A DNA stretch of 64,000 nt from Ligilactobacillus pabuli (GTDB lineage: Bacteria > Bacillota > Bacilli > Lactobacillales > Lactobacillaceae), in contig NZ_BQXH01000005.1 in NCBI RefSeq assembly GCF_022836475.1, forward strand, positions 71,699 through 135,698, read 5' to 3'. Under the pieces are notes generated by a model that saw only the letters and a program-made list of their open reading frames with translations, was not told the DNA's origin and did not search any database. Position numbers and translations under genes: made by a program. Numbering within the stretch: the stretch's first letter is position 1; each line of letters opens with the position of its first letter. Shown here piece by piece: positions 1,234 through 64,000 of the stretch.

Positions 1234-2784
1234 TCAATTTTGGTTCCATAGTATTTTTTCTGAATGTACTTTTGAATCTCTTTTTGATGATACAATTTGA
1301 CCAATTTTTTTGTATTCCTGGTTGTCTTTATTCTTCGCCGCCGTTACCAAAATATTGACGTTAGCCTTCGTACTCTGATCCACTTTTTCATGGAAAATCG
1401 AGTCCTTCAAAACGTTCAAATCACCTTCCAAAGCAACCGTGTTAGAAATTAACACTGCATCAACATTGTTGATCACCCGCGGGCCCGTGGTATCATCAAT
1501 TTTTTTAAACTGTAATTTTTTAGGATTAGCAACAATATCATTAACCATCCCTAAGTTACCGAAGCCCTTTTTCAAGGTAATCAAGCCCGCCTTTTGCAGC
1601 AACAGTAAGCCACGAGTTGCTTGAGAAGGATTATTTGCAATCGCGACTGTTGCTCCAGTAGGAAGATCCACAATATTTTTGTATTTTTTGGAATAGATTC
1701 CCATTGGTTCTAAGTAAGTCGTTCCTAAAACTGCTAGTTTATTACCCTTATTTTGTTGATTATAAGCTTGGACATAAGATAAAGATTGGAAGGCATTCAC
1801 ATCCACGTTGCCCTGCGAGGTGGCTTGATTCAGCTGGACACCATCGGTAATTTGCTTGACCTTAATTTTCAAGCCGAGGTCTTTAGCTGACTGCGACTTA
1901 GCGATATATTTCCATGTTTCGTAATCGGTCCCCTGTGACCCAATGGTGATCGTCTTAGTTTGATCTGCTTGAGCAGCCTGAGTAGTCATCGTATGGATTC
2001 CGACAAAAATGAGACTGACTACCGCCAAAGAACCTGCTAACCACCAGAAACTCTGCTTCACCCCCTTTCCGCTTTTTTCTGTCCGAGCTGGATTTGTTGT
2101 TCTGCCTAATGGTCGGTGTTCAATGAGACCCACGCACCAGTCACCAATAATTTGAACGGCGAACACCAAGATCAAGATAATCAGCATCGCCACCAAGATC
2201 ACATCGTTTTGAAAGCGGGCATAGCCAATACTGATTGCAATGTCACCTAAGCCGCCAGAGCCGATCGCGCCAGCCATGGTAGTTAAGCCAATCAAGCTAA
2301 TGATTGTTACGATCGAAACGCGGACAATGTCGGCCAATCCTTCCCGCAAATAAATCCGAAAAATTATCGCAGCTGGACTAGAACCCATCGCCTGAGCCGC
2401 TTCAATCACACCATCGTCTACATCCAACAACGCGTTTTGCACCTGGCGCGCATAGAACGGAAAAATCCCACAGATCAACGGAACTAAAGAAGCCGTAGTT
2501 CCAACAGTCGTGCCAATTAAATACTGAGTTAACGGCGAGATGACCGCTAACAAAATAATAAATGGAATCGACCGTAAGAGATTAGTCACCTTGTCTAGGA
2601 GTGAATATGTGACCCGGTCTTCTAAGATCCCGCCTGGTTGGGTGATTACCAGAAAAATTCCTAAAAAGAGCCCCAAAAACGCTGAGATCACTGCCGACCC
2701 AAAGGTCATATACAAAGTCTCCCAGGTGGCTTGGATAAACTGTCCCTTCATTTGGAAAACATTTGGCAGCAACTTTTCTAGCAT
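1234..2784 (-). CDS. Methionine ABC transporter, fused permease (MetI-like, EAA loop) and C-terminal NlpA/MetQ-type substrate-binding domain
   Basis: 516-aa ORF. The N-terminal ~220 aa is a polytopic permease with an IEAAQAMGSSP EAA motif. A further TM segment follows, then an NlpA/MetQ-like lipoprotein domain. Confidence 0.8.
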   Translation of the reverse strand: MLEKLLPNVFQMKGQFIQATWETLYMTFGSAVISAFLGLFLGIFLVITQPGGILEDRVTYSLLDKVTNLLRSIPFIILLAVISPLTQYLIGTTVGTTASLVPLICGIFPFYARQVQNALLDVDDGVIEAAQAMGSSPAAIIFRIYLREGLADIVRVSIVTIISLIGLTTMAGAIGSGGLGDIAISIGYARFQNDVILVAMLIILILVFAVQIIGDWCVGLIEHRPLGRTTNPARTEKSGKGVKQSFWWLAGSLAVVSLIFVGIHTMTTQAAQADQTKTITIGSQGTDYETWKYIAKSQSAKDLGLKIKVKQITDGVQLNQATSQGNVDVNAFQSLSYVQAYNQQNKGNKLAVLGTTYLEPMGIYSKKYKNIVDLPTGATVAIANNPSQATRGLLLLQKAGLITLKKGFGNLGMVNDIVANPKKLQFKKIDDTTGPRVINNVDAVLISNTVALEGDLNVLKDSIFHEKVDQSTKANVNILVTAAKNKDNQEYKKIGQIVSSKRDSKVHSEKILWNQN

Positions 2785-3860
2785 GATGCTTCCCCCTCTC
2801 TGACTGTTCTTCCACTTAGTATCTGGGTCTTAACTCCTTGCGAGCGTAAATCTTCAAGTGCCTGGTTAAACGGCGGCAAATCTCCTGCTATGATTGCGAT
2901 CATATAGCCAACACTTTCTCCGTCAATTTCATCAATATTGGCAAACAAGATATTTTCAGACACGTGGTAAGTCTGCGACAATTCCGAGAGAATGCTTTGT
3001 TTAGTTGCATTTCCAATGAAATTAAAGTAAACCAATTCTTGATTTGCTGGCAATTCATCCAGCTTGACCGTTTTAGTCACTCTCTCAATGGCCGCCTTAA
3101 CATTCGTGGAAGTCTCCACAAAATCAGTCGTCAATTTTTCTTGCGGCGCAGTGAAAATTTGACTAACTGGTCCGCGTTCGATCACCCGTCCCTCATCCAT
3201 CACCGCCACATTATGGCAAATTGACTTGATCACCTGCATTTCATGCGTGATCAAAACGATCGTTAATCCCAACTCTTCGTTGAGCTTTTTTAGCAGTTCT
3301 AAAATTGACTGAGTAGTTTTAGGATCCAAAGCACTAGTAGCTTCGTCAGAAATCAAAACTTCCGGTTCAGTCGCTAAGGCTCTGGCAATTGCGACTCGCT
3401 GCTTTTACCCACCTGACAGTCTTTCTGGAAAAGTATTTGCGTATTCTTCTAGTCCGACCCGTTGTAACAGGCTGAAAGCTCGTTTTCGCCTGTCTTGTTG
3501 ACTAATTTTCTTGCCCAAGAGCGGATATTCAACGTTACCCAACACGGTGCGCGATTTCATTAAATTAAAATGCTGGAAGATCATCCCAATTTGCTGACGA
3601 GCGTGCCGCAGCTGAGGTGCTGTTAAAGTCCGTAAATCCTGACCACCCACGAACACTTGCCCTGCGCTGGGTTGTTGCAAGAGATTGATCACCCGGACCA
3701 AGGTACTTTTTCCAGCTCCTGAGTAGCCAATTATCCCGTAGATATCACCTTGCTTAATTTGCAAATTCACATCGTCTACTGCTCTAAGCTCCTGCCCGCT
3801 ATTTTTGAATGTGACCCTGACATTTTGTAAATCAATCACGTTGCTAGTCTCTGCTACCAT
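2778..3860 (-). pseudogene. metN: Methionine ABC transporter ATPase MetN interrupted by an in-frame TAA (CAA to TAA) at the Gln of the LSGGQ signature
   Basis: Track ORFs 3405..3860 (Walker A GYSGAGKST, ends ..ERLSGG) and 2778..3356 (continues KQRVAIARAL.., Walker B, C-terminal MetN NIL domain) are in the same frame. The only break is TAA at 3405-3407, giving LSGG*KQR. Confidence 0.75.
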
Positions 3861-6330: not shown

Positions 6331-6331
6331 A

Positions 6332-10790: not shown

Positions 10791-10947
10791 GTGCAAACTA
10801 AGAGACGAATTTATCAATTAAAGCCATTCTTTGAAACAATTTACGTAAAAAATTATCTACCAGGCAGAGCTTTTGACTTTTACTAGCTAGTTAATTATGC
10901 TTGATATTAAAGAACTTAAATATAGTCTGGTGAATTAAACAGAACTG

Positions 10948-11096
10948 ACCACTTTGCTCCGCTCTGTTATTTTAGTCGAGCTCCGTAAAGCAACTCCTTC
11001 CGTCTATCCAAGAATAGCCTTCAATGCCAAAAGTGCATCAAAGGCCATTCTCCGATAGTGCTCGGGAGTTAACCGCTTTGCTCCGCTCTGTTATTA
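10948..11096 (+). repeat. Family A structured repeat (about 125 bp), 1 copy plus flanking partial tail
   Basis: TAGTCGAGCTCCGTAAAGCA..CAATGCCAAAAGTGCATCAAAGG..CGCTTTGCTCCGCTCTGT. The same GCTCCGCTCTGT tail sits just upstream. Confidence 0.85.
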
Positions 11097-11114
11097 ATTG
11101 GAGGTTTTACTGAT

Positions 11115-11981
11115 ATGGAACAAAAAATTGCAGTGCTCTCCGATAGTCATGGAAACTCAACTGCTCTGCAAGCAGCCATCGACGATGCTACTGCCCAGGG
11201 GGCCAGCGAATTTTGGACCCTTGGCGATATTGCCTTTGGTGGAGCGACCTCCGAAGAATGTCTCCAGCTGTTAGACCAAGTTAATTTAACTCAAGTTTTA
11301 ATGGGTAACTGGGAAAGCGACTTCAACCAGGAAATGACTCAGCCTAACTGGGATCTTAGTGATCCGACTAATGTCTACTTCACTGTGCTTGTCAAGTATG
11401 AAAATGAACATTTGAGCGCCAAACACCGGCAACAACTAGTCCACCTGCCAATGTCTGGCCGTAAGCAAGTTGGCGACCTGCTCTTTTCATTGAGCCATAA
11501 CCTGCCAGGGCAAAACCATGGGCATAGCCTTTACCCCACCCAGCCTCAGGCTAATTTTGACCAGCTAGCGCTCGACTCGGCCATCGATGTGGCCATCTAC
11601 GCTCATATCCATAGTCCCCTCTGGCGTTACAGTGATCAGGGCCAAATTATTTTGAATCCCGGCGCCGTTGGTCGTCCCTGGAACACCCGAGCCAAGTTGC
11701 TGCAAAATCGGGCTGCCAGCTACCTTTTGCTGACAGTCAATGACACTGGGCTCGCTAAAGTCGATTTCCGCCGCGCCGCCTACGACTTAAACATTGAACT
11801 GCAAAAAGGCCGTGACCGAGGCTTCCCCTATGTCGACCTGGAACAAAAGCAGCTGTTAACGGGTCATTCATCGACCCACAACACCGCTTTACTAGCAGAA
11901 ATTAATGCCAAACGCGGTTATGACAAACTCGCAGCCAAATATTTGAATGAGCTAAAAGAACAAACACGAGCTGCACAATAA
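11115..11981 (+). CDS. Metallophosphoesterase (calcineurin-like phosphoesterase)
   Basis: 288 aa with DSHGN, GDIAFGG, GNWE and HIH motifs; GGAGG RBS. Confidence 0.75.
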   Translation: MEQKIAVLSDSHGNSTALQAAIDDATAQGASEFWTLGDIAFGGATSEECLQLLDQVNLTQVLMGNWESDFNQEMTQPNWDLSDPTNVYFTVLVKYENEHLSAKHRQQLVHLPMSGRKQVGDLLFSLSHNLPGQNHGHSLYPTQPQANFDQLALDSAIDVAIYAHIHSPLWRYSDQGQIILNPGAVGRPWNTRAKLLQNRAASYLLLTVNDTGLAKVDFRRAAYDLNIELQKGRDRGFPYVDLEQKQLLTGHSSTHNTALLAEINAKRGYDKLAAKYLNELKEQTRAAQ

Positions 11982-13277: not shown

Positions 13278-13454
13278 AAAAAAATACCTCGATCATCGTA
13301 AAATTAGTTGCTGGCCTGATTCGACCAGTTCATTTCTAATTTTACAAGAATTTGGTATTTTTTCAAATTTAATAATTGCTGGTTATCGCAAAATGGTTTT
13401 CCATAACCTATGAGTTCATTTTTTCTTTCAGTGACAGGACCTCATCCCGCATAA

Positions 13455-13765
13455 TCAAAAAGGAGCTTCAATGCAAGTACGCATTAAAACTCCTTTCTAC
13501 TTATTTTGCTCGGGTGTATTTAGTCGAGCTCCGTGAAACAGGAAGCTCCGCCTATCCATGACCAACCCTCAATGCCGAAACCGCATTAAAGGCCGGTCTC
13601 CGATATGCTCGGAAGCTAAACGCTTTGCTCCGCTCTGTGTTTAGTCGAGCTACTCAAGCCAGGACTTTCCGTCCATCTAAACCCAGCGGCCAATGCCTAA
13701 AGCGCATTAGCCACTAGGTTCCGATGGTACTCGAGTCCTCCCGGCTTGCTCCACTCTGTGTTTTT
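13455..13765 (+). repeat. Family A repeats: a fragment plus two tandem copies (period 123 bp)
   Basis: Copies at about 13518-13640 and 13641-13762. The array ends ..CTCTGTGTTTTTTA, where TTA is the complement of the rgg stop codon. Confidence 0.85.
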
Positions 13766-14625
13766 TATAAAGCGTAGCCCTGGGCATTTAATTCTGCCAC
13801 TGCTCGCTCCTTAACTTCATCATTATGGATGTGGTCAGCAAAAGTATACGCCATATACAAGGCCTGGATGGCTTCTGGGATCCATTTGCCATTGACACCC
13901 GCTAAAGCATAGGCCATGTTAATATACAACTTGTCGACTGGGCCCGAAATCATTTCCTTTTGTGCCATCGCAATTCCCTTACGTGTGATTTTCAAAGTTT
14001 CATCGTACTGCTTCATATTTAAATAGTAATAAGATGCATTGGTCCACAGCTGCAAGGTCGCATAGCTTTGTTTTTCTGGGTCGTGGTCCGCAAAGGCTTC
14101 CCGTGCCTGGTCGATGTAATACTTGGCTGGTTCAACTTTTCCAGCAATCAAGTATTCGACCGCTAAATCACTGGCAACTAATGGCCATAAAACGCCAATT
14201 TCGTGGTGTGTGACCTGCAAGATCCGGTTATAAGTGAAAATTGCGTCGGAGCGATGGTCAGTCGTTGAGTGCGCTAAGATCCATGCCCGCATATAGTCGC
14301 GCCACAAAGTCAGTTCAAGTGTCATATCATCTAATGTATCGAGTTTGTCCAAGATCTCGCTCGCAGCATCAAATTGGTGGTGCAAAATTCTGACCACTGC
14401 ACTCAAGACCAGCGAGTTGCCATCAATAAATTCTTCAGTGCCAACTGCTTCGGCAAAGCTCATATTCAAACGTGTAACAATTTTTTCCAAGGTTTCCCCA
14501 GAAGGAACGGCTGACCGAGTTTCGATCTGACTGATCATCCCTTGCGAAGTGATGCCCTCGGCGAGTTCCCCTTGGGACATTTTAAGTTCTTTTCTTCTTT
14601 TTCGAATTAATCCACCATTAATCAT
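13765..14625 (-). CDS. Rgg/GadR/MutR-family transcriptional regulator (XRE HTH plus C-terminal helical-repeat domain)
   Basis: 286 aa. N-terminal LIRKRRKELKMSQGELAEGI..SQIE HTH with an Rgg-like C-terminal domain; AGAGGT RBS. Confidence 0.6.
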   Translation of the reverse strand: MINGGLIRKRRKELKMSQGELAEGITSQGMISQIETRSAVPSGETLEKIVTRLNMSFAEAVGTEEFIDGNSLVLSAVVRILHHQFDAASEILDKLDTLDDMTLELTLWRDYMRAWILAHSTTDHRSDAIFTYNRILQVTHHEIGVLWPLVASDLAVEYLIAGKVEPAKYYIDQAREAFADHDPEKQSYATLQLWTNASYYYLNMKQYDETLKITRKGIAMAQKEMISGPVDKLYINMAYALAGVNGKWIPEAIQALYMAYTFADHIHNDEVKERAVAELNAQGYAL

Positions 14626-17859: not shown

Positions 17860-17996
17860 CTAGTCACACTATGATAGTCGGGTTCTGCTAAACAAGGCTC
17901 TCAGCTTATCTAAGCCCAGCCTTCGATGCCAAAAATGCATCAAAGACTATGCTCCAATCATGCTCGGGAGCTGACCGCTTTGCTCCGCTCTGTGTT
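17860..17996 (+). repeat. Family A repeat, diverged copy, ending at the pncB stop codon
   Basis: ..CAGCCTTCGATGCCAAAAATGCATCAAAGACT..CGCTTTGCTCCGCTCTGTGTTTTTA, then the pncB stop (complement of TTA at 17998-18000). Confidence 0.75.
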
Positions 17997-17997
17997 T

Positions 17998-19458
17998 TTA
18001 GTCCACTCGATTATTTTCAATCAGTTCTTGCTGGACATCATATAATTCCTTCGAAATATAAACAGGATATTCGTCTGGATACAGTAAACGTTTCTTCGAT
18101 GCAGGTAATTCAGCTAATTTTTCCTGACTATACTGCTGGATCTCAAACACGCTTGGATTTCCCGTCAATAATTCTCCCTGTTCATTTAAAGCTTCTTTTT
18201 GTAGTTCAACTGCCTTCACGTTTCTTAATGTCTGGAAACGTTTGATAGCTTCTGGATCAGCACTTAGGACCTGCATATCTTCAATGTTGTCCAAAACTTC
18301 TTCTTCCCGTAATGTGACCAGGTCAGCAATTGGTTCGTCAGTCCGCGGATCATAGACCCGATAAACTCGTTTTCGTCCTGGAAGAGTTAGTTTGCCAAGG
18401 CTCGCACTAACTTTAACTTTTGGCAGCCAAGTGCCATCGGCTTTTTTCACAGCACTTAATTTGTAAACACCACTCAAAACTGGTGAGCTAGCGCTTGTGA
18501 TCAAGTTTTCACCGACCCCAAAGTTATCGATGGCAGCCCCTTCATTAACCAAAGACTGAATAATTTGTTCATCTAAGGCGTTTGAAGCTGTGATCGTTGC
18601 ATCCGGATAACCGGCGTCATCCAACATTTGGCGAGCTTTCGTTGATAATTGGGTAATGTCTCCAGAATCGATTCTCACACCAAATGAACTACTGTCAGAG
18701 CCCTTGGCTGACAACTCATCAAAGACCTGGATCGCATGCGGCATCCCAGAATGCAAAACATCATAAGTATCAACTAGTAATGAACAATTTTCAGGATAGA
18801 TCTTGGCCCAAGCCCGGAAAGCATCCAATTCCGTGTCAAAGGCTTCGATCCATGAATGTGCCATCGTTCCGGCAACCGGGATCCCGAATTTCTGTCCGGC
18901 CAACAAATTCGAGGTACTTGTACAACCGCCGATTACTGCGGCCCGTGCACCATAAACCGCACTTGCTGGTCCCTGTGCTCGACGTGCACCAAATTCCATG
19001 ACTGCCTTGTCCTTGGCTGCTGCCGAGATTCGGCGGGCCTTGGTAGCAATCAACGTTTGATGGTTAATGATATTTAATAATAAGGTTTCAAATAACTGAG
19101 CTTGGAGCAATGGTCCCTCAACCGTCACAACTGGTTCTCTTGGAAAGACTGGCGTCCCTTCTGGAATTGCATAGACCTTGCAGGTAAACTTAAAGTCCCG
19201 CAAGTAGTCCAAAAATTCTGGGGTAAACAACTGTAACCCACGCAAATATTCCAAATCAGCAGCGTCAAAGTGGAAGTTTTGCAACTCCTCTAAGGCTGTC
19301 CCAATTCCGGCTAAAACAACAAACCGTCCGTTATCTGGTAGTGTCCGGAAAAAGATGTCGTAAGACCCGCGTTCTTCCGCCATTTCTTCGTGAAAACCAT
19401 TTGCCATAGTATATTCATATAAATCGGTCAGTAGTGCCATATTTCCTTGCTCGATCAT
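17998..19458 (-). CDS. pncB: Nicotinate phosphoribosyltransferase
   Basis: 486 aa with PncB N-terminal and catalytic domains; AGGAGG RBS. Confidence 0.9.
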   Translation of the reverse strand: MIEQGNMALLTDLYEYTMANGFHEEMAEERGSYDIFFRTLPDNGRFVVLAGIGTALEELQNFHFDAADLEYLRGLQLFTPEFLDYLRDFKFTCKVYAIPEGTPVFPREPVVTVEGPLLQAQLFETLLLNIINHQTLIATKARRISAAAKDKAVMEFGARRAQGPASAVYGARAAVIGGCTSTSNLLAGQKFGIPVAGTMAHSWIEAFDTELDAFRAWAKIYPENCSLLVDTYDVLHSGMPHAIQVFDELSAKGSDSSSFGVRIDSGDITQLSTKARQMLDDAGYPDATITASNALDEQIIQSLVNEGAAIDNFGVGENLITSASSPVLSGVYKLSAVKKADGTWLPKVKVSASLGKLTLPGRKRVYRVYDPRTDEPIADLVTLREEEVLDNIEDMQVLSADPEAIKRFQTLRNVKAVELQKEALNEQGELLTGNPSVFEIQQYSQEKLAELPASKKRLLYPDEYPVYISKELYDVQQELIENNRVD

Positions 19459-19598: not shown

Positions 19599-19881
19599 CC
19601 GGTGATAGTGCTAGTTTGCCCCACTCTGTTTTTGTAGTCTGGGTTCCGTGAAACAGAAAGTTCCGCCCATCTAACCCCAGGAACCAATGCTAAAAGCACA
19701 TTAGTCCCTAGGTTCCGATGGTGCTCGAGTCTTAACCGGCTTGCTCCGCTCTGTTTTTGTAGTCGAGCTGCTCAAAGCAGCTTCTTCCGCCTATCCAAGA
19801 CCAACCTTCAATGCCCAAAACGCATTAAAGGTCAGTCTCCGATATGCTCGGAAGCTAATCGCTTTGCTCCGCTCTGTTTTT
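19599..19881 (+). repeat. Family A repeats: partial tail plus two tandem copies, between the nrtR-like stop and the pncB start
   Basis: Copies at about 19635-19757 and 19758-19880 (period 123 bp); ends CTCTGTTTTTA at the nrtR stop codon. Confidence 0.85.
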
Positions 19882-20650
19882 AGGCTTCCTTCAAGCGATA
19901 AACCTTCGCAGGGCGCCCACGCTTCTTGGAGACCGAGATCCCCGTTTCTTCAAAGAGCTTACTGTGTGTTTTAGTGAAATTAGAATTGTCGATCTGTTCC
20001 ATCTTCGTTTGTAAGAATGGTGCATAAACACAGCGCGCCTCCCTAATGGTAAAGCTGTCGCCCAAAATTAATAAAATATTTGGCTGATAATCCAGCTTAT
20101 TTCTGATGCGTAAACAAGCAACCTTAATGATCCACTCATAATCAAAGGCCAATCGATGCGGCGTTTTTTTGACATAGGCCGCCAAATTAGCGTAATAATC
20201 CTCTTGCTTTTGTTCCGCTGCCACCTGAAACTGCACTAGCCCATTGCTAAAACAGTAACGGGAATCGACCGTCGACAGCGCAAACCAGCGTGCGTCACTA
20301 GCACCATAACCTGGATTTAATGGCGGCATTTCCGGCAAAAAAGTCATATACGCCAACGATAAATTGCGGTGGTGAGCCGTGACCCGTTGTGGGGCCGTGA
20401 AAGTTTCTAACTGTTCCGTATGGAAAGCTGCCAATTTCAAACCGATTTTATCCTGTACTAAACGAAGCGCCGCTTGATCCGCACTTTCATGTTCACCCAG
20501 AAATGTCTCTGGCAACGCCCACATTCCGAGCGCTGGTCGTTCAGATCGCTTGACTAACAACAAATTGACCTGATTTGTTTCCCGGTCAAAGCTCCAGATC
20601 AAATTAACAATATTAATTTGTGTCAAACGATTTTCTTCCTTCATGAACAT
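19880..20650 (-). CDS. NrtR-like Nudix-related transcriptional regulator (degenerate Nudix domain plus C-terminal winged HTH)
   Basis: 256 aa. The Nudix-like segment GX5EX7RLVQDKIGL is degenerate. The C-terminus KTHSKLFEETGISVSKKRGRPAKVYRL is wHTH-like. It sits directly upstream of pncB. Confidence 0.5.
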   Translation of the reverse strand: MFMKEENRLTQINIVNLIWSFDRETNQVNLLLVKRSERPALGMWALPETFLGEHESADQAALRLVQDKIGLKLAAFHTEQLETFTAPQRVTAHHRNLSLAYMTFLPEMPPLNPGYGASDARWFALSTVDSRYCFSNGLVQFQVAAEQKQEDYYANLAAYVKKTPHRLAFDYEWIIKVACLRIRNKLDYQPNILLILGDSFTIREARCVYAPFLQTKMEQIDNSNFTKTHSKLFEETGISVSKKRGRPAKVYRLKEA

Positions 20651-31274: not shown

Positions 31275-31626
31275 TTTAGCTGACTCCTCCTTTGAAAATA
31301 AGTCTATTTGTCTATGGTAACACAGAGTGAAGTGAGACGGGAGAACTCAAGCATTATTGTAGACGGAAACCAGATTAGTGGAAACTCTCGCCTCAAGTAG
31401 CTCAACTACAACTACAATTCAGGATTCGAACACAAGTCTAGCAGACTTATGTAGGTAAATGAAAATGCAAACACTAGTCTGTCAGACTTACGTTCGCAAG
31501 CAACAAAATTAATCTCTACTCGACCCTCACCCAACTATTTTTAGTTCAAAAAAATGACCAGCACTTTGTGGGACTCATTTGTTAACTAAATGAGACGCCC
31601 AAAATACTGGTCGTTAATATTTAATG

Positions 31627-32617: not shown

Positions 32618-32880
32618 CCGTTCTGTGTTCTTAGTCGAGCTACTCAGGGCAAGAGATTCCGCCCATCCAAACCCATGAACCGATGCCGAAAGCGCATCAG
32701 TCCCTGGGTTCCGATGTTGCTCGTCTCTTAACCGCCCTGCTTCGCTCTGTGTTTTCTTAGTCGAGCTACGCGAAACAGAAAGCTCCGCCCATCCAAGCCA
32801 GGCCTTCAATGCCAAAAGCGCATTAAAGGTCTGGCTCCGATAGTGCTCACTTTCTCCCGTTTCACTTCGCTCTGTGTTTT
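32618..32880 (+). repeat. Family A repeats, two tandem copies; the 3' end overlaps the last codons of the MFS gene
   Basis: Copies at about 32630-32754 and 32757-32880. The MFS ORF reads ..AKHRAK* through the repeat tail CGCTCTGTGTTTTG (stop is the complement of 32862-32864). Confidence 0.85.
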
Positions 32881-34247
32881 GCACCCAGCACCGTTGCTAA
32901 ACTAACCAGTGCTAACAGTACTAAGAAACCAAAGTCAAAGCGACTTCCCAGTAGAGTTGCCCGCGACATACTGCCCTGACTTGCCATTTGACGAGCAGAA
33001 ATAATGGCTGATAACACACTAGTTCCAAGTGAGCCAGCATACTGTTGAAAAGTGTTAAACAGTGAATTAATTTCAGCCTTTTGTGCTGGTGGAACCTGGG
33101 TACTTGCGTCCGACATCGAATTACTAAAACCAAAGTTAAAGCCACCACGTAAGAAAATATAAATCAACGTCACAGAAATGACACCCAACACAGGAGTCAA
33201 ACTAAAAAATAACAAACTACCACAAGTCACCAACAAGCTCGAAATTAATAATGGTAAGAAAGCACCATGCTTGTCAAATAATCGTCCAGCCAACGGTGAC
33301 ACTGCTGCCCCAACGAGCGCCCCTGGCAATAAAATAAAGCCCGCCACAAACGCACTCACATGTAAGTAACCCTCAGTAAAGATCGGCAAAACAAATGAAA
33401 TTCCGATATTGACAAACTGCAAGATGAAAAAGTTTAACCAGCGTAAGCCGATTAATGGGTGGAGCAAGAGCTTAAAGTTCAAAATTCGCCGGGCAGAAAA
33501 ATGCAAATGAACGGCTAACAAGCTCACACCAATCACGAAGGCCAGTAAAAACCACCAGAATCGTCGGTCGCCAAAGCCATAGTTGCCTGCTTGAGCGAAA
33601 GCTGTACTTAAACTAAAGAAGGTCACACTCAACAAAATAACGCCCAGCCAGTCAAACTTCTCAGTGGTTGAACTAGCAGCCAAGCGGATGTTTCGTTCGC
33701 CAAGCCAAGCCGTCAGTAACAAGATTGGCAGAACAATGATGAAAATGCCCCGCCACGACCAAAAAGCAACCAAGGTTCCGCCATAGGTCGGTCCTAGTGC
33801 CGGTGCTAGCGAAATCACCATCGCTGCAATTCCCATATAAGTGCCTAGTTTTTCTTGCGGTACTAATGACATCACCAAATGAAACATTAACGGTGTCGAA
33901 AGTCCGGTCGCTACCGCCTGTAGTAACCGTCCTCCCAGCAGAACTGCAAAACTTGGGGCACTCGCACACAACAAGGTTCCCACCAAATTAAAACAGATGG
34001 CCGTCGTAAATAATGTCCGGGCAGCAAACTTTTTAGTTAAAAAGCCTGTCGTTGACATGACCAAAGTGACCATTAACAAATACCCTGAAGTGACCCACTG
34101 CATACTTCCCAAACTCACATGAAATTCTTGGGTCAAAGTTGGAAAAGAGACGTTCAACGACGTTTCAACCAAAATTCCTAAAAATGATAACAACGCTACT
34201 GCGCCGATTGCCAGTTGTGTTTGCCGGCTAACTGTCGTTTCATTCAT
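32862..34247 (-). CDS. MFS transporter, DHA2/EmrB-like (14 TMS)
   Basis: 461 aa polytopic protein with MFS motifs. Confidence 0.85.
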   Translation of the reverse strand: MNETTVSRQTQLAIGAVALLSFLGILVETSLNVSFPTLTQEFHVSLGSMQWVTSGYLLMVTLVMSTTGFLTKKFAARTLFTTAICFNLVGTLLCASAPSFAVLLGGRLLQAVATGLSTPLMFHLVMSLVPQEKLGTYMGIAAMVISLAPALGPTYGGTLVAFWSWRGIFIIVLPILLLTAWLGERNIRLAASSTTEKFDWLGVILLSVTFFSLSTAFAQAGNYGFGDRRFWWFLLAFVIGVSLLAVHLHFSARRILNFKLLLHPLIGLRWLNFFILQFVNIGISFVLPIFTEGYLHVSAFVAGFILLPGALVGAAVSPLAGRLFDKHGAFLPLLISSLLVTCGSLLFFSLTPVLGVISVTLIYIFLRGGFNFGFSNSMSDASTQVPPAQKAEINSLFNTFQQYAGSLGTSVLSAIISARQMASQGSMSRATLLGSRFDFGFLVLLALVSLATVLGAKHRAK

Positions 34248-35292: not shown

Positions 35293-36426
35293 TTATTCTC
35301 CCCAGACCTCTTTAGCTGTTGCCACAACCAGGCGGATCTTGTCCCACTGCTGGTCTTCTGTTAGTTTGTTTCCTTCCTCAGTCGAAGCAAAGCCACACTG
35401 CGTGCTTAAAGAAAGATTTTCTAATGGAACTTCCTGTGCTGCTTCTTTAATCCGCGCAATTAATGTTTCAGGTTGTTCTAACTGTGCTTTTTTACTGGTG
35501 ACTAGACCCAAGACAACTTTTTTGCCAGCAGGTACTTCCGCTAGCGGTTCAAAGTCACCGGAACGATCATCATCAAATTCGAGATAAAAAGCATCGACCT
35601 TTTCTTGTGCCAACAAATGGCTGGCAACCGGAGCATAACCACCACTAGCGGCCCAAGTTGAATGGTAGTTTCCACGGCAAACATGGGTACTCAGTCGAAG
35701 ATCAGCAGGCAGATCACTTAAAGCGGCATTATTGACCTGAAGATAAATATCCTGAAGTTCCTCTAGGTCATAGTCGCCATTCGTTTGATTTTCCCAAAAA
35801 TCGTGGTCAACTACCATCCCCCAAGTACAATCATCAATTTTTAAGTCCCGACACCCAGCTTGATATAAGGTAAGGATCAAATCATGGTAGGCCTGACCAA
35901 TATCAGTAATTAACTCTGCTTGATCAGGATAAACTTGTTGCAAAGCTGCTAAATTATCTTCACCACGCAAGAGTTCGGAATAAAATTGTGCAGGTGCAGG
36001 AATACTTTGACGCGCGGTCACTCCTGGCTGGTCGGCTACTAGTTCCTGCAGAAATTTAAAGGCTTGAATATCAGGATGACTTGGTTTAAAGGCAATTTTT
36101 CCAACAACCCGCGCTGAGTCAGCTCGTGTTTCTTCATCATGGAAGAAATATCCGTGTTCCGGACGAGTATGTTCAATCCCAGCAAAGCCCCAGAAAGTAT
36201 CTAAATGCCAGTAACTCCGCCGAAATTCACCATCGGTTACAACCTGCAACCCAGCTGCGATTTCTTGTGCCACTAATTTTTTGATTTCGCTATTCTCGAC
36301 TGCCGTCAATGCTGACTGATCAATTTGGCCTGCCACAAACTTTTCTCGCGCCTCTTTTAACTGTGCTGGACGTAAAAAACTACCGACAATATCATAATGT
36401 AACTTAGTTGCTGTTTGTTCTACCAT
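35293..36426 (-). CDS. Cobalamin-independent methionine synthase family protein (MetE C-terminal-domain-like, YxjG/YxjH type)
   Basis: 377 aa with UROD/MetE-like fold, behind a T-box leader. Confidence 0.75.
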   Translation of the reverse strand: MVEQTATKLHYDIVGSFLRPAQLKEAREKFVAGQIDQSALTAVENSEIKKLVAQEIAAGLQVVTDGEFRRSYWHLDTFWGFAGIEHTRPEHGYFFHDEETRADSARVVGKIAFKPSHPDIQAFKFLQELVADQPGVTARQSIPAPAQFYSELLRGEDNLAALQQVYPDQAELITDIGQAYHDLILTLYQAGCRDLKIDDCTWGMVVDHDFWENQTNGDYDLEELQDIYLQVNNAALSDLPADLRLSTHVCRGNYHSTWAASGGYAPVASHLLAQEKVDAFYLEFDDDRSGDFEPLAEVPAGKKVVLGLVTSKKAQLEQPETLIARIKEAAQEVPLENLSLSTQCGFASTEEGNKLTEDQQWDKIRLVVATAKEVWGE

Positions 36427-37110: not shown

Positions 37111-38379
37111 TTAATCTTTGTAGAACGTATCTCGAACCGCATTAGTAATCGCAATCTTATCGTGCTGGAATGACAAACCACCCTGAATATACAAAATGTA
37201 TGGGTCACGTAACGGGCCATCGGAGGATAGTTCAATCGTTGAGCCCTCTGTAAAGCTCCCTGACGCCATGATAACTTGATCTTCATAGCCATCTTGGTAA
37301 CTTGGTTCTGGATCAACAAAAGCATTCATTGGTGAGTAATGTTGGATAGCAGCACAGAATTGAATCATTGGTTCTGGCTTACCAAAAGCAATCGTTTCTA
37401 CAATATCTGAACGTGGATCACTCCATTTTGGTGCAGCAACCATGCCCATCTTCTCCAATAAAGCTGCAGTAAAGACCATTCCCTTCAAAGCTTCCGCTGT
37501 AGTATGTGGAGCTAAGAAGAATCCTTCATAAAAATCACGCAAATAGCCGTATGTTGCACCTTCGTACTTACCAGCACCTGGTACGATCAATTGTGAGCCG
37601 CAGTCTTGAATCAAATCCGCCCGGCCAACGATATATGCACCAGATTTGGCGATACCGGCACCAGCGTTCTTGTACAGGGAACCAGCCATTAAATCTGCCC
37701 CAAAGAAGGTTGCTTCTTCAGTTTCAGTAAATTCACCGTAACAGTTATCAATGAAGATGATGGCTTGTGGTGCCAAACGTTTGGCCGTTTCCACCATCTT
37801 TTTAATTTTATCAAGGGTGAACGTTGCTCGAGTAGCGTACCCTAAAGAACGTTGAATCGTCACAACTTTGATCGTTGGGTCGCCAGCCAGATCTTTTTCC
37901 ACGTTTTCGTAGTCAACTTCACCATTTGGTAAGAGTTCAGTACATTTGAAGTTAATGCCACGTTTCTTCATGTTACCGGGTTTGTCGCCCGCTAAACCAA
38001 TCACTTCTTGAATCGTATCGTAAGGAGTCCCAGTCATATAGTATAAAGTATCGCCATAATAGAGTTGTGAGAACAATGCTGTGGCAATCGCATGGGTCCC
38101 AGAAGTCAACTGTGGTCGCACGAGAGCATCTTCTGTCTTAAAATAACCCGCATAAATTTTTTCCAATTTGTCACGGCCAATATCATCGTAGCCATAGCCG
38201 GTTGAACCAACTAAGTCCTCTTCAGCGACATGGTTTTCGCGGAATAAATTCAAAACGCGCTGTTGGTTATATAATGAAACCTCATTAATTTCATTCAACC
38301 GAGGAGCGATCATTTCGTCGACTTCGGCAATTTTTTGTTGTAGATCTGCTGGTAAATTTTCTTGCCAATTATGTTTCAT
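37111..38379 (-). CDS. PLP-dependent Cys/Met-metabolism family protein (YnbB / aluminium-resistance-protein type)
   Basis: 423 aa from ATG 38379 (AAAGGAG RBS); CGS/MGL-like fold. Confidence 0.7.
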   Translation of the reverse strand: MKHNWQENLPADLQQKIAEVDEMIAPRLNEINEVSLYNQQRVLNLFRENHVAEEDLVGSTGYGYDDIGRDKLEKIYAGYFKTEDALVRPQLTSGTHAIATALFSQLYYGDTLYYMTGTPYDTIQEVIGLAGDKPGNMKKRGINFKCTELLPNGEVDYENVEKDLAGDPTIKVVTIQRSLGYATRATFTLDKIKKMVETAKRLAPQAIIFIDNCYGEFTETEEATFFGADLMAGSLYKNAGAGIAKSGAYIVGRADLIQDCGSQLIVPGAGKYEGATYGYLRDFYEGFFLAPHTTAEALKGMVFTAALLEKMGMVAAPKWSDPRSDIVETIAFGKPEPMIQFCAAIQHYSPMNAFVDPEPSYQDGYEDQVIMASGSFTEGSTIELSSDGPLRDPYILYIQGGLSFQHDKIAITNAVRDTFYKD

Positions 38380-38617
38380 GTATTTTTTTCTCCTTTTCAT
38401 ATTAAACGAGCAGTTTGTGTCCAACCGGTGAAATTTAACTCACGTAACTGACACGGTGACGTCCGCTAAACTACATTAGCACCACAGAGATGCTGTCATT
38501 TCCAGTCTACCCATCTCATAGCTAATAAGCAAGTTTAGACTCCGTTAACTGCGGGTTACTTCCAATTTTAAGCACAAGCAAACCCCACAACTGCTCGCTG
38601 TGAGGTTTGTTAGTTTA

Positions 38618-48642: not shown

Positions 48643-48896
48643 TCTTCAAAAATATCCCCTTTTATCGATCTTAGAATGGGTCGTTGATTTGGGTGTTAAA
48701 TTAGCAATCGTTTTAGCAGACCCCGCGACCTAAATTATAGTATGATATAAGCAAAATAGTTGCGAGAAAAATGCCCACAATCAGCCTTTTTAGCAACTAA
48801 AGTTATTGCTATTGTACCATAGAACTACGTAAGTTTCTGGCTGGAACGTCCAGTTCAAAGCGCTTTATCAATGTTTTTTAAAATAAATTAAAAATC

Positions 48897-49146
48897 ACGG
48901 AGTAAAGTAACCCGGTTAGAAGATGAGCACTAACAAGCTTTCGGGCATGATGCGGTTTAGGTATCGTGACAGAAAGTAGGTTAGGCGGAAAGTTCTGGGT
49001 TAAGTAGCTCGTCTATAATCACAGAGCGGAACAAACCGGGAGAACTCGAGCACCATCGGAACCCAGGAATTAATGCGTTTTTGGCATTGACCCTGAGTTT
49101 AGATGGGCGGAAAGTTCTGGTTTGAGTAGCTCGCCTACAATCACAA
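48897..49146 (-). repeat. Family A repeats in inverted orientation (variant A2 copy plus one standard copy)
   Basis: 48897-49030 is the reverse complement of the A2 variant seen at 57913-58043. 49025-49145 is the reverse complement of a standard copy. Confidence 0.85.
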
Positions 49147-49181
49147 ACTTACACTCACACCTAAGAAAGCAGGAAAAGCCT

Positions 49182-52752: not shown

Positions 52753-52894
52753 AGCCAGACTCTGTTTTTAGTCGAGCTCCACCAGTCAGGACTTTCCCCT
52801 ATCCAAGACCAGCCTTCAATGCCAAGTACGCATTAAAGACTAGGCTCCGATAGTGCTCGAGTCCTCCCAACTGGCTCCGCTCTGTTTTTTGCTT
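52753..52894 (+). repeat. Family A repeat, one copy plus partial tail; its T-rich end runs into the -35 of the downstream promoter
   Basis: TAGTCGAGCTCCACCAGTCAGG..CAATGCCAAGTACGCATTAAAGAC..GGCTCCGCTCTGTTTTTTGC. Confidence 0.85.
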
Positions 52895-57386: not shown

Positions 57387-57440
57387 AAAACTTACACCAC
57401 CAAGAAAATTATCCTGTGTGCTGTAAGTTTTATTTTTGTT
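57387..57440 (-). terminator. Rho-independent terminator downstream of the vanZ-like gene
   Basis: AAAATAAAACTTACA..TGTAAGTTTTATTTTT. Confidence 0.55.
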
Positions 57441-57894
57441 TGCTAATTTTTATCTGTAGCCATGCAACGATAAGATAACCCAGGCACAGACCAGCTGCGT
57501 TGGCCAAAATATCATTCACGTCAATCCAACGTGAGGTCAACTCTAAGTTATCTAGAATGAGTTGTGTCAGCTCAATCGTTGCCCCGACTGCCAGACCAGT
57601 TCCAATGACCTTTAAACTTGACCACTTCTTTTGGCGCAGTAATGCAATAAACACACCAAATGGCAAGGTCATCACAATATTTAAATAGAAGTCTAAGTGC
57701 GTTAATTCAGCAAATGGTAAATAAATAAACGGTGCCTTTCCTAAATAAATATATGGCACCGGCTCACTAGCCGGAATTACTAACGGCAAGGTTGGTGCAA
57801 AACACAAAACCCCCACTGTTGCCAAATAAATAATAAATGCGCCCCAAATTGCACGACGCACGACTTTGTTCCTTAAATTCACTAACTCATTCAC
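57430..57894 (-). CDS. VanZ-like family membrane protein
   Basis: 154 aa, 4 TM helices. Confidence 0.7.
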   Translation of the reverse strand: MNELVNLRNKVVRRAIWGAFIIYLATVGVLCFAPTLPLVIPASEPVPYIYLGKAPFIYLPFAELTHLDFYLNIVMTLPFGVFIALLRQKKWSSLKVIGTGLAVGATIELTQLILDNLELTSRWIDVNDILANAAGLCLGYLIVAWLQIKISKQK

Positions 57895-57900
57895 ACCTTA

Positions 57901-58292
57901 TCTCGGGTTAATTCTGTGATTGTAGTCGAGTTCCTTAACTCAGAAGATTCCGCCTAACCTGCTTTCTGTCACGATGCCTAAACCGCATCATGCCCGAAAG
58001 CTTGTTAATGCTCATCTTCTAACCGGGTTAATCCGCTCTATGATCTTTAGTCGAGCTACTTGAAACAGAAAGTTCCGCCCATCCAAACCCAGGACCCAAT
58101 GCCAAAAACGCATTAGTCCCTGGGTCCCGATGGTGCTCGCTTTCTAATCGTTTCATTCCGCTCTGTGATCTTAGTCGAGCTACTCAAGCCAAGACTTTCC
58201 GCCTACCCTAGCCCAACCTTCAATGCCTAATGCGCATTAAAGGCTAGGCTCTGATAGTGCTCGAGTCTTAAACGGCTTGCTCCGCTCTGTGA
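57901..58292 (+). repeat. Family A repeats: variant A2 copy plus two standard copies in tandem (period about 124 bp), between a dehydrogenase stop and the vanZ start
   Basis: Copies at about 57913-58043, 58045-58167 and 58169-58291. The array ends CTCTGTGATTTTA at the stop of the 58295 gene. Confidence 0.9.
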
Positions 58293-58294
58293 TT

Positions 58295-59260
58295 TTAGTA
58301 CCCCTTTTTCAAATCTACTTCATTTCTGACCAATGTTCCATCAACTTCATATTGTTGTAGATTTTCCTTGAAAATCTTGATCACATCTTGCGCATATTCT
58401 TGATACAAGCCCGAAACATGCGGTGTGATCAAAACATTATCCATTTGCCACAATTGACTGTCCTCTGGTAGTGGTTCCGGTGCCGTTACATCTAGTCCTG
58501 CCGCACTAACCTGTCCAGCTTTCAAAGCGGCTACCAAATCATCCGTGACCACACTTGGACCACGCCCAATATTGATAAACAATGGGGCCGCTTCTAAGGC
58601 TGCAAAAAATTCTGCATCGTATAATCCGCGTGTTTCATCAGTTAGTGGCAAAGTATTAACGATCACCGCAGCATCTTTGACTGCCTCCGTCATTTGGCTG
58701 AGAGGCAAAGTTTGGTTGAAACCATCAGCTGGATGACCTGAGTGATTAACCCCGACCGTCTCCATGCGGAAGGCCTGCCCTAGTTCGGCAATTCGTGTAC
58801 CAATATGGCCAGTTCCAATGACTGCTAGTTTTTTATCACTCAAAACAGTGTAGCCAAAGTCAGCCGGTTGCCAGTGATTTTTCTGTTGCTGCACAACTGC
58901 ATCCTTGATACCGCGAAAATGGCTCAACATCATTCCAAGTACTGTTTCAGCAATTGGTTCTGCATGGATCCCGCTCACATTTGACAATAAGATCTGTCGC
59001 TTAGCGAGTTGGTCTAATGGAAAATAATCAACCCCCGCAGAAAAAGCTTGGATCCATTTTAACTGCGGTTTTTCTAAACTAAAGATTCGGTCTAAGATTC
59101 CCGTGGCATTCCCCAGTAAAATGTCAATTTCAGCTAACTGCTGGTCAGATAATTCATCATTGGCAAAGAAATATTCATGCTCTGATTCTGCCGCTAATTT
59201 TTTTAATGCATCCTTAGCGCCCTCGTGATTTAAAGTTCCGCCTAATACTAAAATTTTCAC
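58295..59260 (-). CDS. NAD-dependent D-isomer-specific 2-hydroxyacid dehydrogenase
   Basis: 321 aa from GTG 59260 (AGAGAGG RBS) with GTGHIG NAD motif and catalytic R/E/H. Confidence 0.8.
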   Translation of the reverse strand: MKILVLGGTLNHEGAKDALKKLAAESEHEYFFANDELSDQQLAEIDILLGNATGILDRIFSLEKPQLKWIQAFSAGVDYFPLDQLAKRQILLSNVSGIHAEPIAETVLGMMLSHFRGIKDAVVQQQKNHWQPADFGYTVLSDKKLAVIGTGHIGTRIAELGQAFRMETVGVNHSGHPADGFNQTLPLSQMTEAVKDAAVIVNTLPLTDETRGLYDAEFFAALEAAPLFINIGRGPSVVTDDLVAALKAGQVSAAGLDVTAPEPLPEDSQLWQMDNVLITPHVSGLYQEYAQDVIKIFKENLQQYEVDGTLVRNEVDLKKGY

Positions 59261-59403
59261 TCTGCTCACCTCTCTATTTGAAATTAATTATACACTAGAT
59301 TAGTTGTTTTTCTAAAGAAAACGCTAATGCAGCCGTTCTTGTTCGACTGATCAGCTAAAAAAAGCCAAAGTCTCCTATTAACAAGAAACTTTGGCAACTT
59401 TAT

Positions 59404-59913
59404 TTAAGCATTAGCTGGTTTGCTTGGAGCTAACATAAAATGACTAATATACGGCTTGGAGTTTTCATTATAACCGAACTGGTTAATTTGATTGTTTTTC
59501 GAAGTGTTCCAATCGAAAAAGTCGATGTCCGAATCCCAGACATTGATCATCAAGTACTGCAAATTCTTCCGCGGTACATGGAGAATCAGGCTGTATCGTA
59601 AGCCCACCGGGATCTCATAACCATTTTCCCACTTCTGCAGTATTGCCTCTAAGATTCCCCGTTGTTTGGTACTGAGAGTAAAGTATCGTAATTCAAAATA
59701 CCCATCCCAAACTTCCTGCCCAATTTCATGTTGGGTCACATAATTGAGTCCTGAACCAAAAACCGTTTTTTGGTTTGATTTATCAAGTAAAATAAATTTA
59801 TCTTCATCAACCACCGATTTTAATAATTTCAAATCTCTTTCTGGATATTTCTGTTGCTTGGCACGTAAGTCCTCTTCTGGTCCTAAGGCTAAGCTAATTT
59901 TTTCAACAGCCAT
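59404..59913 (-). CDS. Hypothetical protein (170 aa)
   Basis: GGAAGGAG RBS before ATG 59913. The longer track ORF has no RBS. Confidence 0.5.
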   Translation of the reverse strand: MAVEKISLALGPEEDLRAKQQKYPERDLKLLKSVVDEDKFILLDKSNQKTVFGSGLNYVTQHEIGQEVWDGYFELRYFTLSTKQRGILEAILQKWENGYEIPVGLRYSLILHVPRKNLQYLMINVWDSDIDFFDWNTSKNNQINQFGYNENSKPYISHFMLAPSKPANA

Positions 59914-60063
59914 AATGAATCTCCTTCCCAATCGTAATTTGCACAGCTCCATTATAACATCTTTGTGAACAAAGACGCTTGATTTTACAAAGTCAGTCTC
60001 ATTTCTAACAAAAAACATCCTGTCCCGCCAACTGCAGTTCAGAATGTTTCACGTGAAACTATC

Positions 60064-60633
60064 TTAATTTTCTGGTTTAAATAATTTTGGTGCTCGAACA
60101 GCTAACAACCAAACAATGATCATGGCTGCAATAGCTTCAGGAATCATATAAGTTGCATTGTAAATAGTCGAGTAAGCAAAGACTGACTGACCCTTAGGAG
60201 TATATTCACCATAGAAAACGATCCCGGAAATTACGTTGTTCAAATAGGCCATGAAAGCACCCAAGAAACTAGCAGCCAAGGTATAACCAAAAACTTGGCC
60301 CTGCTTTTTTTCAGTTAAAGCGTTTTGTAGTGGTTTAGCGAAGAAACCAGCGAAGCCGACTGTCCCAAAACAAAAGACATAGTCAAACAATACTTGGAGC
60401 GGATTCAAGAAGTAGCCGCCAAACATTAACTGCACGATTCCACAAATAGCACCAGCCGTGCAACCCCAAATTGGTCCCCGACGCAATGACAAGAAAATCA
60501 AAGGAACCAAAACAAGTGAAACACTTCCGCCTTGCGGCATCCGGAAAATAACAATGTAACTTAACACTAGTGATAAAGCCGCCATGATGGCCGTTTCGGT
60601 CAAAAGACGGGTCGAACTTTTAGCTTGTGACAT
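60064..60633 (-). CDS. thiT: ECF-transporter S component for thiamine (ThiT)
   Basis: 189 aa, 6 TM helices. GAGGAGG RBS. Preceded by a TPP riboswitch. Confidence 0.8.
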   Translation of the reverse strand: MSQAKSSTRLLTETAIMAALSLVLSYIVIFRMPQGGSVSLVLVPLIFLSLRRGPIWGCTAGAICGIVQLMFGGYFLNPLQVLFDYVFCFGTVGFAGFFAKPLQNALTEKKQGQVFGYTLAASFLGAFMAYLNNVISGIVFYGEYTPKGQSVFAYSTIYNATYMIPEAIAAMIIVWLLAVRAPKLFKPEN

Positions 60634-60839
60634 AAAAATCCTCCTCAGGATAATAACTACGGTGTGCCTGTACAATAATTGCCTAAAATTGATCATTTTT
60701 GAATGAACAAAATTTTTACTGGCACGCCATTTGAATTAAAAAATTGCTAACACCGAAACCAATCATTTACCAAGTCTAGTCTTTCTCTCTCCTAATCTTG
60801 ACCAAAGAATCAAATTGTTCTTTGGTATCTAAAATACCA

Positions 60840-62335: not shown

Positions 62336-62896
62336 ATGTTTTCTTATCAAATCGATGACCAGCTTAGCCTAACCATTCCGCGTCCACAACTTGACGCTGA
62401 ACCGTTATTTAAGTTAGTCGATGAAAATCGCTCTTATCTCAGTCCCTGGCTGCCTTGGGTCCCTAAAATGGCTAGTGTTCGCGACGAAGAACAATTTTTA
62501 ACCAGCGTTTTACAACATTTTGGCAACGGCAGTTCCGTCAACTTGGTGATTCGTGACACCCGCCAACCAGTAGGCATGATCAGCTTAAATAGTTTCCGCC
62601 AGCAAGATCACAGTACGGAGATCGGCTACTGGCTAGGGCAACAATTTGCCGGACAAAATATTATGCACCGGGCAGTTTTAGGACTATGCGACCTCAGCTT
62701 TACCGATTATGATTTAAATAAAATCGAGATCCACGCTGCCGTCGAAAATCTTCCTAGTAACAATGTTGCTCAAAAAGCCGGTTTTCATTTGGACGGTCAA
62801 GTTCGGGCACAGGAGTTACTAGTTGATGGCTATCATGATGGCAATGTCTGGTCTCTACTCAAAGATGAATGGCAGCAACAAAGGAGTGTACTATGA
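62336..62896 (+). CDS. GNAT N-acetyltransferase (RimJ/RimL-like)
   Basis: 186 aa; GGAGG RBS. Confidence 0.8.
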   Translation: MFSYQIDDQLSLTIPRPQLDAEPLFKLVDENRSYLSPWLPWVPKMASVRDEEQFLTSVLQHFGNGSSVNLVIRDTRQPVGMISLNSFRQQDHSTEIGYWLGQQFAGQNIMHRAVLGLCDLSFTDYDLNKIEIHAAVENLPSNNVAQKAGFHLDGQVRAQELLVDGYHDGNVWSLLKDEWQQQRSVL

Positions 62897-63890: not shown

Positions 63891-64000
63891 TTTAGACATG
63901 TGGTTTTAAGTCAAGCGAAGGTGATAAATAAATTTTAAAAACTTTCTAGAAAAGACTTGATTTTTGGCGCACTTTAACAAGCCCCAAAGTTTCAATTTTT

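Follow-up and report, generated by a model that had tools for sequence, protein, structure and literature searches.

How hairpin-forming repeats of the repetitive extragenic palindromic (REP), BOX, and MITE (miniature inverted-repeat transposable element) types choose their sites is poorly understood. Repeat ends that supply the stop codon of a neighboring gene have been reported but never explained: BOX repeats of pneumococci encode the stop codon of 36 coding sequences (CDSs) without clear truncation (PMC3049150), and GTAG-tagged REPs have termini that often supply a TAG stop to the flanking open reading frame (ORF) (PMC3733652). BOX repeats, whose module number varies between strains, are regarded as parasitic (PMC3049150). 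Here, we analyzed a 64-kb window of Ligilactobacillus DNA (the whole stretch under study; 43% G+C), for which an initial annotation had described a repeat, family A, with elements ending at the stop codons of minus-strand genes. The repeat proved to be real: the window contains 15 full units of approximately 124 nt in nine arrays of one to three units, plus a few remnants, and family A makes up about 3% of the sequence. It is a new repeat family of a known kind of element, strictly tied to stop codons, and on balance we consider it a probable non-autonomous mobile hairpin repeat (REP/BOX/MITE-like) that inserts in a fixed orientation just 3' of TAA or TAG.

In the orientation of the initial annotation, a unit starts (head) with (T/G)TAGTCGAGCT, has the apex CAATGCC-N-AAA-N-CGCATTA, and ends (tail) with TTTGCTCCGCTCTGTGTTTTTA. 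The reverse complement is the mRNA-sense strand of an abutted gene and reads 5'-UAAAAACACAGAGCGG.... All arrays are direct tandem copies in which the tail of one unit is joined without a gap to the TAG of the following unit. Terminal inverted repeats are absent, as the termini (TAGTC... and ...GTGTTTTTA or ...CTCTGTGTTTTTA) are not complementary, and the first pairs form 5 and 12 nt in from the ends. TA precedes almost every head and also closes almost every tail.

According to the initial annotation, the stop codons of five minus-strand genes coincide with the TTA that terminates an element tail, and for four of the five this was exact. The two-unit array at 13513..13767 (+) ends in the tail CTCTGTGTTTTTTA (13754-13767), the last TTA of which (13765-13767) is the TAA stop of an rgg-like gene for a helix-turn-helix (HTH) regulator (13765..14625, -). 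This exact 14-mer occurs once in the window, and the other tails differ from it at one to three positions. The TTA at 17998-18000, at the end of a single chimeric unit (17870..18000, +), is the TAA stop of pncB (17998..19458, -), and the TTA at 19880-19882, at the end of a two-unit array with a decayed remnant at its head side (19622..19882, +), is that of an nrtR-like gene (19880..20650, -). A three-unit array with a hairpin-deleted remnant ahead of it (57911..58297, +) supplies the TTA (58295-58297) that is the TAA stop of a 2-hydroxyacid dehydrogenase (2HADH) gene (58295..59269, -); this array occupies the operon spacer ahead of vanZ (57430..57894, -). The fifth case, an MFS gene, behaved differently. 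Its ORF (32862..34247, -) runs 18 nt into the tail of a two-unit array (32618..32882, +) and terminates there at 32862-32864 (TCA, or TGA when read on the gene strand), so that the last five residues (KHRAK) are encoded by the element; the tail at this locus ends in TTTTGCA instead of TTTTTA. The gene names given by the initial annotation were backed by Pfam (HTH_3 for the regulator, NUDIX plus NrtR_WHD, MFS_1, 2-Hacid_dh, and NAPRTase for pncB), and by Pfam the abutted genes are functionally unrelated.

With arrays placed uniformly in intergenic DNA, the probability that at least four of nine would be flush with a stop codon is 2.5e-9, and it is 2e-4 when insertion is limited to TTA/CTA (YTA) sites; chance is thus excluded as the source of these junctions. 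Seven further stop-flush copies were found in other taxa: one in Companilactobacillus mishanensis (L012, TAG), two in Companilactobacillus nodensis (L013, both TAG), and two each on the JGI metagenome contigs L014 (both TAA) and L016 (TAA and TAG). On L014 and L016 the genes are convergent, and each has a copy whose tail abuts its stop. All 11 exact junctions (four in the window and seven elsewhere) have the same element end turned toward the gene.

Insertion targeting at gene ends, one of the explanations offered by the initial annotation, was supported both by the native C-termini of the abutted proteins and by the comparison that it proposed with orthologous loci lacking the element; empty sites were found in a sister species, in L. 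acidipiscis, and in L. salitolerans. At pncB, the empty site of the sister species (L019) reads GAT TAA ATAGTCAATATC (ATAGTC...), followed by the terminator, while the filled site of strain L008 reads GAC TAA, then the element (AAACAC...CCCGACTA), and then TAAATAGTG. The element has the TAA on one side and the ATAGT... flank on the other, and behind it pncB retains its native intrinsic terminator (17854-17830, minus strand; a 10-bp stem and then T8). The nrtR-pncB spacer is 113 to 142 nt long and free of the element in L018, L019, and L021, compared with 422 nt in the window, and the MFS-dNK interval of the sister species also has no element. At 2HADH-vanZ, L. salitolerans (L048) has a 24-nt operon spacer, TAT TAA AGGCAGAAAGTTGGAG...TTG (AGGCAG...), and the window has TAC TAA, then three units and the hairpin-deleted remnant (...GAGATA), and then AGGTG. 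These two loci, pncB (L008 versus L019) and 2HADH-vanZ (window versus L048), provide two clean junctions, and TA(A) flanks both sides at each. A 3-bp (YTA) duplication was considered and discarded, as most single-unit copies have different bases 5' of TA at their two junctions.

The C-termini of the abutted proteins agree with this. The 2HADH C-terminus (...GY*) is common to all 21 homologues retrieved, and the protein aligns end to end with several PDB chains up to the last residue; PncB ends in NNRVD*, as does its closest homologue; and the winged-helix domain of NrtR is complete. Together, the empty orthologous sites and the native C-termini indicate that the element entered exactly at a pre-existing stop codon. 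On this evidence, the elements are lineage-specific insertions made right at the stop codon, where they lie either within an operon spacer or upstream of the native terminator. The MFS gene is the exception. Its orthologues have longer, different, basic C-terminal tails, and approximately 27 nt of native 3' coding sequence are absent from the window gene. The junction between gene and element lies within AAAACAC, which is plausible both as native coding sequence (AKH, as in P0132) and as the element start. From its sequence, this exception is most readily explained by a secondary event; deletion through slippage between two copies of AAAACAC would give exactly such a junction.

On the better-folding strand, a unit consists of a single-stranded 5' end, (TAA)AAACACAGAGCGG, an imperfect hairpin of approximately 105 nt with the conserved apex TAATGCG-N3-5-GGCATTG, and the conserved 3' end AGCTCGACTA. 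The structure is supported by covariation: among 43 distinct copies from several species, 91.7% of the cells were paired, compared with 71% in shuffled and 28 to 42% in slid controls, and 31 of the 34 pairs showed compensatory changes on both sides. The hairpin is also strand asymmetric. The mRNA-sense strand was the more stable one in 40 of 41 copies (mean of -51.7 versus -38.3 kcal/mol) and had the lower Z-score in 36 of 41, the RNAalifold consensus energy was -43.6 on this strand versus -24.5 on the other, G-U pairs per copy numbered 5.0 versus 1.8, and the mRNA-sense consensus structure contained 100 G-U cells versus 39 A-C cells. A first strand test, for which the structure was predicted on the orientation of the initial annotation, had indicated no G-U/A-C bias; this result was reversed when both strands were folded and had been misleading because helices that need G-U on the other strand were left out. 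On the mRNA-sense strand, an outer helix of 3 to 4 bp starts 5 to 9 nt after the stop codon, and the main stem starts 13 to 16 nt after it.

About a quarter of the arrays are found in a second context, in the opposite transcriptional orientation within a short 5' leader, with the tail ending 0 to 10 nt before the Shine-Dalgarno (SD) sequence of a co-oriented gene. Such copies were located in the window (a tail fragment plus one unit at 10942..11100, +, with the tail ending 4 nt before the GGAGG SD sequence of a phosphoesterase gene, 11115..11981, +) and at L021 1559-1933 and 5623-5840, L012 2573-2718, and L044 20180-20322. In four of these five, TAA or TAG adjoins the same element end on the better-folding strand, and the quality of the hairpin is alike in both contexts. 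In three relatives, one of these genes has a leader without the element, in which only about 20 to 25 nt separate the -10 box from the SD sequence, and the nearness of the element to the SD sequence is thus partly a matter of space.

The composition of the arrays indicates that their members did not arise by local duplication. All 15 units have their closest relative in another array, and mean identity is 0.615 within arrays compared with 0.67 between arrays (maximum of 0.89 between arrays). Thus, the different subtypes that make up an array each came, or were copied, into it on separate occasions. Without exception, decayed units and tail-only remnants are on the stop-distal side, which fits the entry of new units next to the gene. 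The number of units varies between strains (one or two at pncB, one or two at rgg, and two or four in the array at 48889), and in both sequenced comparisons (pncB and rgg) the single unit is a chimera of the two, with arms that no longer match, and is therefore a product of unequal recombination. Additionally, contig L002 carries a unit from which the hairpin has been deleted, with the tail joined to the head. A tail fragment that precedes arrays was considered as an obligatory terminal direct repeat, in which case a copy would exceed one unit in length and would stem from rolling-circle replication or reverse transcription; this was set aside because the fragment is absent at pncB and in L014 and because hairpin deletion and recombination were seen as strain polymorphisms. 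Next to the rgg-like gene, a decayed partial unit (13444..13515, +; a weak nhmmer match) lies on the stop-distal side of the array. Its gene-strand sequence would fold into a short hairpin with a T-run behind it, and from this sequence it is likely to be the present terminator of that gene.

Compared with the described systems, family A is closest in behavior to BOX. Both are small interspersed repeats of Lactobacillales with extensive hairpins that are co-transcribed with their neighbors, largely fixed in the species, and rare in relatives, and in both a repeat end supplies the stop of the adjacent CDS without truncation. However, BOX is an A-B(n)-C mosaic with terminal inverted repeats, whereas family A consists of direct tandem copies of a whole hairpin unit with a conserved linker, and its orientation toward the stop is strict. 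The family A consensus contains no boxA-boxB(n)-boxC three-module mosaic, and the boxA-derived BOXA1R sequence was absent from the window at up to three mismatches. REP, BIME, and REPIN sequences, among them the GTAG-tagged REPs that RAYT (Y1) transposases mobilize, resemble family A in being extragenic palindromes, often clustered, between unidirectional and convergent genes, with a G-T/G-U strand bias and a short conserved tag by the hairpin foot; in family A, with its palindrome of about 105 nt, an invariant TAG lies 2 nt from the foot, and it is extended to GTAG in 5 of 15 copies. They differ in size (20 to 40 nt versus the 124-nt unit) and in arrangement (alternating or inverted doublets versus direct tandem copies), the stop is supplied in family A by the T-rich end (TTA), opposite the (G/T)TAG tag, and the host of family A is a Firmicute. 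On the features compared, family A belongs to neither the BOX nor the REP group. MITEs that target TA, such as RUP (with IS630-Spn1) and the Correia elements of Neisseria, share the size, the hairpin, the TA at both junctions, and the location near genes, but have clear terminal inverted repeats and insert in either orientation. Targeting of TA(A) with its duplication has been proposed for RUP and Correia elements.

The features shared with the IS200/IS605 family bear on how family A moves. They comprise the lack of terminal inverted repeats, a strand-specific subterminal hairpin, and insertion in a fixed orientation 3' of a short target that afterward borders one end and can receive another copy; these likenesses are compatible with membership in that family but do not prove it. 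To our knowledge, the IS200/IS605 family does not prefer stop codons, and we know of no Y1 transposase or full-length element that matches family A. A TnpB element of L. salitolerans (L048 14014-15228; OrfB_IS605, Cas12f1-like TNB), the sole member of that family encountered, was considered as a partner and rejected, as its ends are unrelated to family A.

In the scheme that we favor, a copy would insert in one orientation directly 3' of TAA or TAG on the structured strand. Only where such a triplet is a stop codon would an insertion be unable to harm the protein. The protein would be left unaltered, the element would become the first part of the 3' untranslated region (3' UTR) or of the operon spacer, and the native terminator or the downstream cistron would merely be pushed further away. 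The same stop would stay open for the next insertion, so that the newest unit would adjoin the gene and decayed units would lie distally; this order of addition is one that we infer. Arrays would later be remodeled by unequal recombination between units and by hairpin deletion, and the excess at stop codons would reflect target choice combined with purifying selection on insertions at other places. What the analysis shows is where the element is inserted and in which orientation, that orthologous sites in relatives are empty, that abutted proteins keep their native C-termini, that the hairpin covaries and differs between strands, that unit subtypes are dispersed, and that units recombine. As for the enzyme, a single-strand mechanism (HUH/Y1, of the IS200/IS605 or RAYT type) fits best, because the element lacks terminal inverted repeats, has a strand-asymmetric hairpin, and is inserted in a fixed orientation next to a short target.

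Several observations weigh against this scheme. A YTA target alone is insufficient for the excess at stop codons (P = 2e-4), which calls for either strong selection against other intergenic sites or a further target determinant; the latter is probably needed. The copies in 5' leaders break the TAA/TAG rule in some cases, the strand asymmetry fits selection at the RNA level as well as single-strand DNA processing, and the TA(A) at the two clean junctions fits target duplication and a terminal TA of the element alike. Family A is fixed at pncB and rgg in every contig read, and no virgin empty site within the host species was found at the loci examined. Moreover, no transposase or partner gene, and no RAYT (Y1 transposase) gene, was found among the genes of the 64-kb window, which are housekeeping genes only.

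The same observations can be read as the work of selection on the host. The hairpin would then be a 3'-UTR or intercistronic RNA module that shields mRNA from 3' exonucleases or modulates translation termination, as the better fold on the mRNA strand of the abutted gene, with extra helices that rely on G-U, would suggest, along with the constant spacing of the main stem from the stop, the fixation at pncB and rgg in all strains read, and the presence of copies within operons (2HADH-vanZ and L013). REPs of Escherichia coli located within about 15 nt of a stop codon reportedly stall terminating ribosomes (Liang, Rudd, and Deutscher, 2015), and family A likewise places a stable hairpin that starts about 5 to 16 nt after the stop, although this likeness is a functional analogy only. 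However, the positions are not conserved, as the same genes have no element in the sister species, L. acidipiscis, or L. salitolerans, the abutted genes have no functional theme, copies also occur in the opposite orientation in 5' leaders with hairpins of equal quality, arrays of two to four hairpins would be redundant, and strains tolerate chimeric units in which mismatched arms spoil the hairpin. We therefore regard a host-selected module as a possible but rather unlikely explanation. A narrower form of it, the terminator module suggested by the initial annotation, did not hold up. The location at gene 3' ends and the T-run that ends the strand on which the repeat was first read would agree with an intrinsic terminator carried by the repeat, but on the mRNA-sense strand the hairpin is followed by GACUAAAAACAC, with no U-tract; no promoter, and no terminator on either strand, was predicted inside any family A element. 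The native terminators remain downstream, as at pncB, and several copies lie between co-transcribed genes in operon spacers. On this sequence evidence, a terminator function is contradicted, and we give the idea hardly any credence.

A different enzyme would be involved if family A were a MITE of the cut-and-paste type that a DDE transposase (IS630- or IS5-like) mobilizes in trans, with TA or TAA as the target that is duplicated. This would account for the TA or TAA at both junctions of the L008 pncB insertion and of the 2HADH-vanZ array and for the TA before nearly all heads and at nearly all tail ends. Yet the pairing is subterminal, without terminal inverted repeats, the hairpin is strand asymmetric, in most single-unit copies head and tail disagree in the third base 5' of TA, and, although TA is symmetric, the head faced the stop in none of the 11 stop-flush junctions; such a transposase thus appears improbable. 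The specificity for stop codons could also come from coupling of insertion to gene expression, which we consider a long shot in either of two versions. A single-strand DNA enzyme might act on the coding (non-template) strand; where ribosomes have stopped and RNA polymerase continues uncoupled from them, this strand would be exposed, and an in-frame TAA or TAG would be the first accessible target. Alternatively, a U-tailed element RNA might prime on the A-rich stop context, as in retroposition; an inflated number of reverse transcriptases has been reported for L. acidipiscis (PMC6004923). Either version, if true, would make family A a mobile element that reads out translation boundaries. Finally, the junctions might be an artifact of ORF reading, with elements landing near gene ends and the TAA of the tail truncating any frame that enters, as the MFS gene, which takes its last five codons and its stop from the element, would illustrate. 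This is already contradicted by the C-terminal alignments, that is, by the universally conserved GY* of 2HADH, the shared end of PncB and its closest homologue, and the complete winged-helix domain of NrtR, and in addition all five junctions have the same frame relative to the element; an artifact is accordingly very hard to credit.

Family A is an unusually clean case of a repeat with ends that supply stop codons, given its strict orientation, mostly nucleotide-exact junctions, native C-termini, empty sites, strand asymmetry, and density of about 3%. Its hosts are culturable lactic acid bacteria or close relatives of them, and the choices between target preference and selection and between DNA and RNA are thus directly testable. 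With this family, hairpins of -45 to -65 kcal/mol come to stand within operons and immediately after stop codons. It can also rewrite protein C-termini (as in the MFS gene) and breaks short-read assemblies, since many metagenome contigs of the host species (L001-L047) start or end within a unit.

The host of family A is a Ligilactobacillus species of the acidipiscis/pobuzihii group, and diverged relatives of the repeat occur in L. acidipiscis, L. salitolerans, and Companilactobacillus. PncB of the window shares 81% identity with its counterparts in L. acidipiscis and L. salitolerans and 88% with the PncB of the uncultured sister species, and the MFS protein is 76% identical to that of L. pobuzihii. 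Proteins identical to those of the window were found only on ENA and Logan metagenome contigs, and an exact look-up of the 2HADH protein and of the product of gene 62869..63648 returned no record. An exact-pattern scan for the conserved apex, with one genome per GTDB species, gave single matches in Lactiplantibacillus nangangensis, C. mishanensis, and C. nodensis and no multi-copy genome. The same pattern matched four short JGI contigs and no viral contig, and BLAST of the arrays against plasmids and phages returned nothing. The density of family A appears to be patchy, as another 40 kb of L. salitolerans (L048 and L049) and the region to the left of the window contained almost no further copies. 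Rfam gave no match over family A at the gathering threshold and only chance miRNA-like matches at E values up to 10. A literature search found no account of the family in Lactobacillaceae; diverged copies are present in the genome of L. acidipiscis, and the comparative-genomics paper on this species is silent on the family. In other strains, a diverged copy that scores 60 bits with the covariance model separates the DAGK and Usp genes, at L034 5975-6118; this corresponds to about 50040-50170 of the window, where no copy was reported.

The remaining family A copies of the window are not flush with stop codons. A two-unit array (48889..49148, -), which has four units in other strains, and a single unit (52759..52894, +) each lie between divergent genes. 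Contig L038, from a divergent lineage, was considered as an empty site for the latter and rejected as a deletion derivative, as it keeps about 20 nt of the tail. Another single unit (63760..63894, +) lies 112 nt downstream of gene 62869..63648 (+); it was rejected as a sixth stop-flush case, as the ORF that meets its TTA has only 17 codons. A degenerate remnant was found at 31308..31423 (-).

The window also contains other repeats and RNA features. A second repeat family consists of tandem 41-nt units with a small inverted repeat of their own, at 6072-6355, 10662-10785, 22238-22439, and 44742-45110; one of these arrays lies approximately 170 nt upstream of the family A copy at 10942, and in L. 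salitolerans (L021, approximately 1940-2150) five 41-nt units adjoin a family A array within the 5' leader of a gene for a 113-amino-acid (aa) protein. Three tandem 42-nt inverted-repeat units (GTCTGGCTCC...GGAGCCAGAC) occupy 36881-37006, between genes 35293..36426 and 37111..38424. An Rfam match to rli28, a small RNA of Listeria (62.7 bits; threshold of 45), covers 27274-27459 (+) and overlaps a 92-aa minus-strand ORF, and a TPP riboswitch (62.6 bits) lies at 60906-60995 (-), upstream of the minus-strand genes 60064..60696 and 59404..60018. A methionine-type ABC ATPase at 2778-3860 (-) is divided into two ORFs, one with the ABC_tran domain (3405..3860) and one with the NIL domain (2778..3356). 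In other strains (L044 and L045) it is a single gene of 358 to 360 aa, and from its sequence the split version is probably a frameshift or a pseudogene in the window strain.

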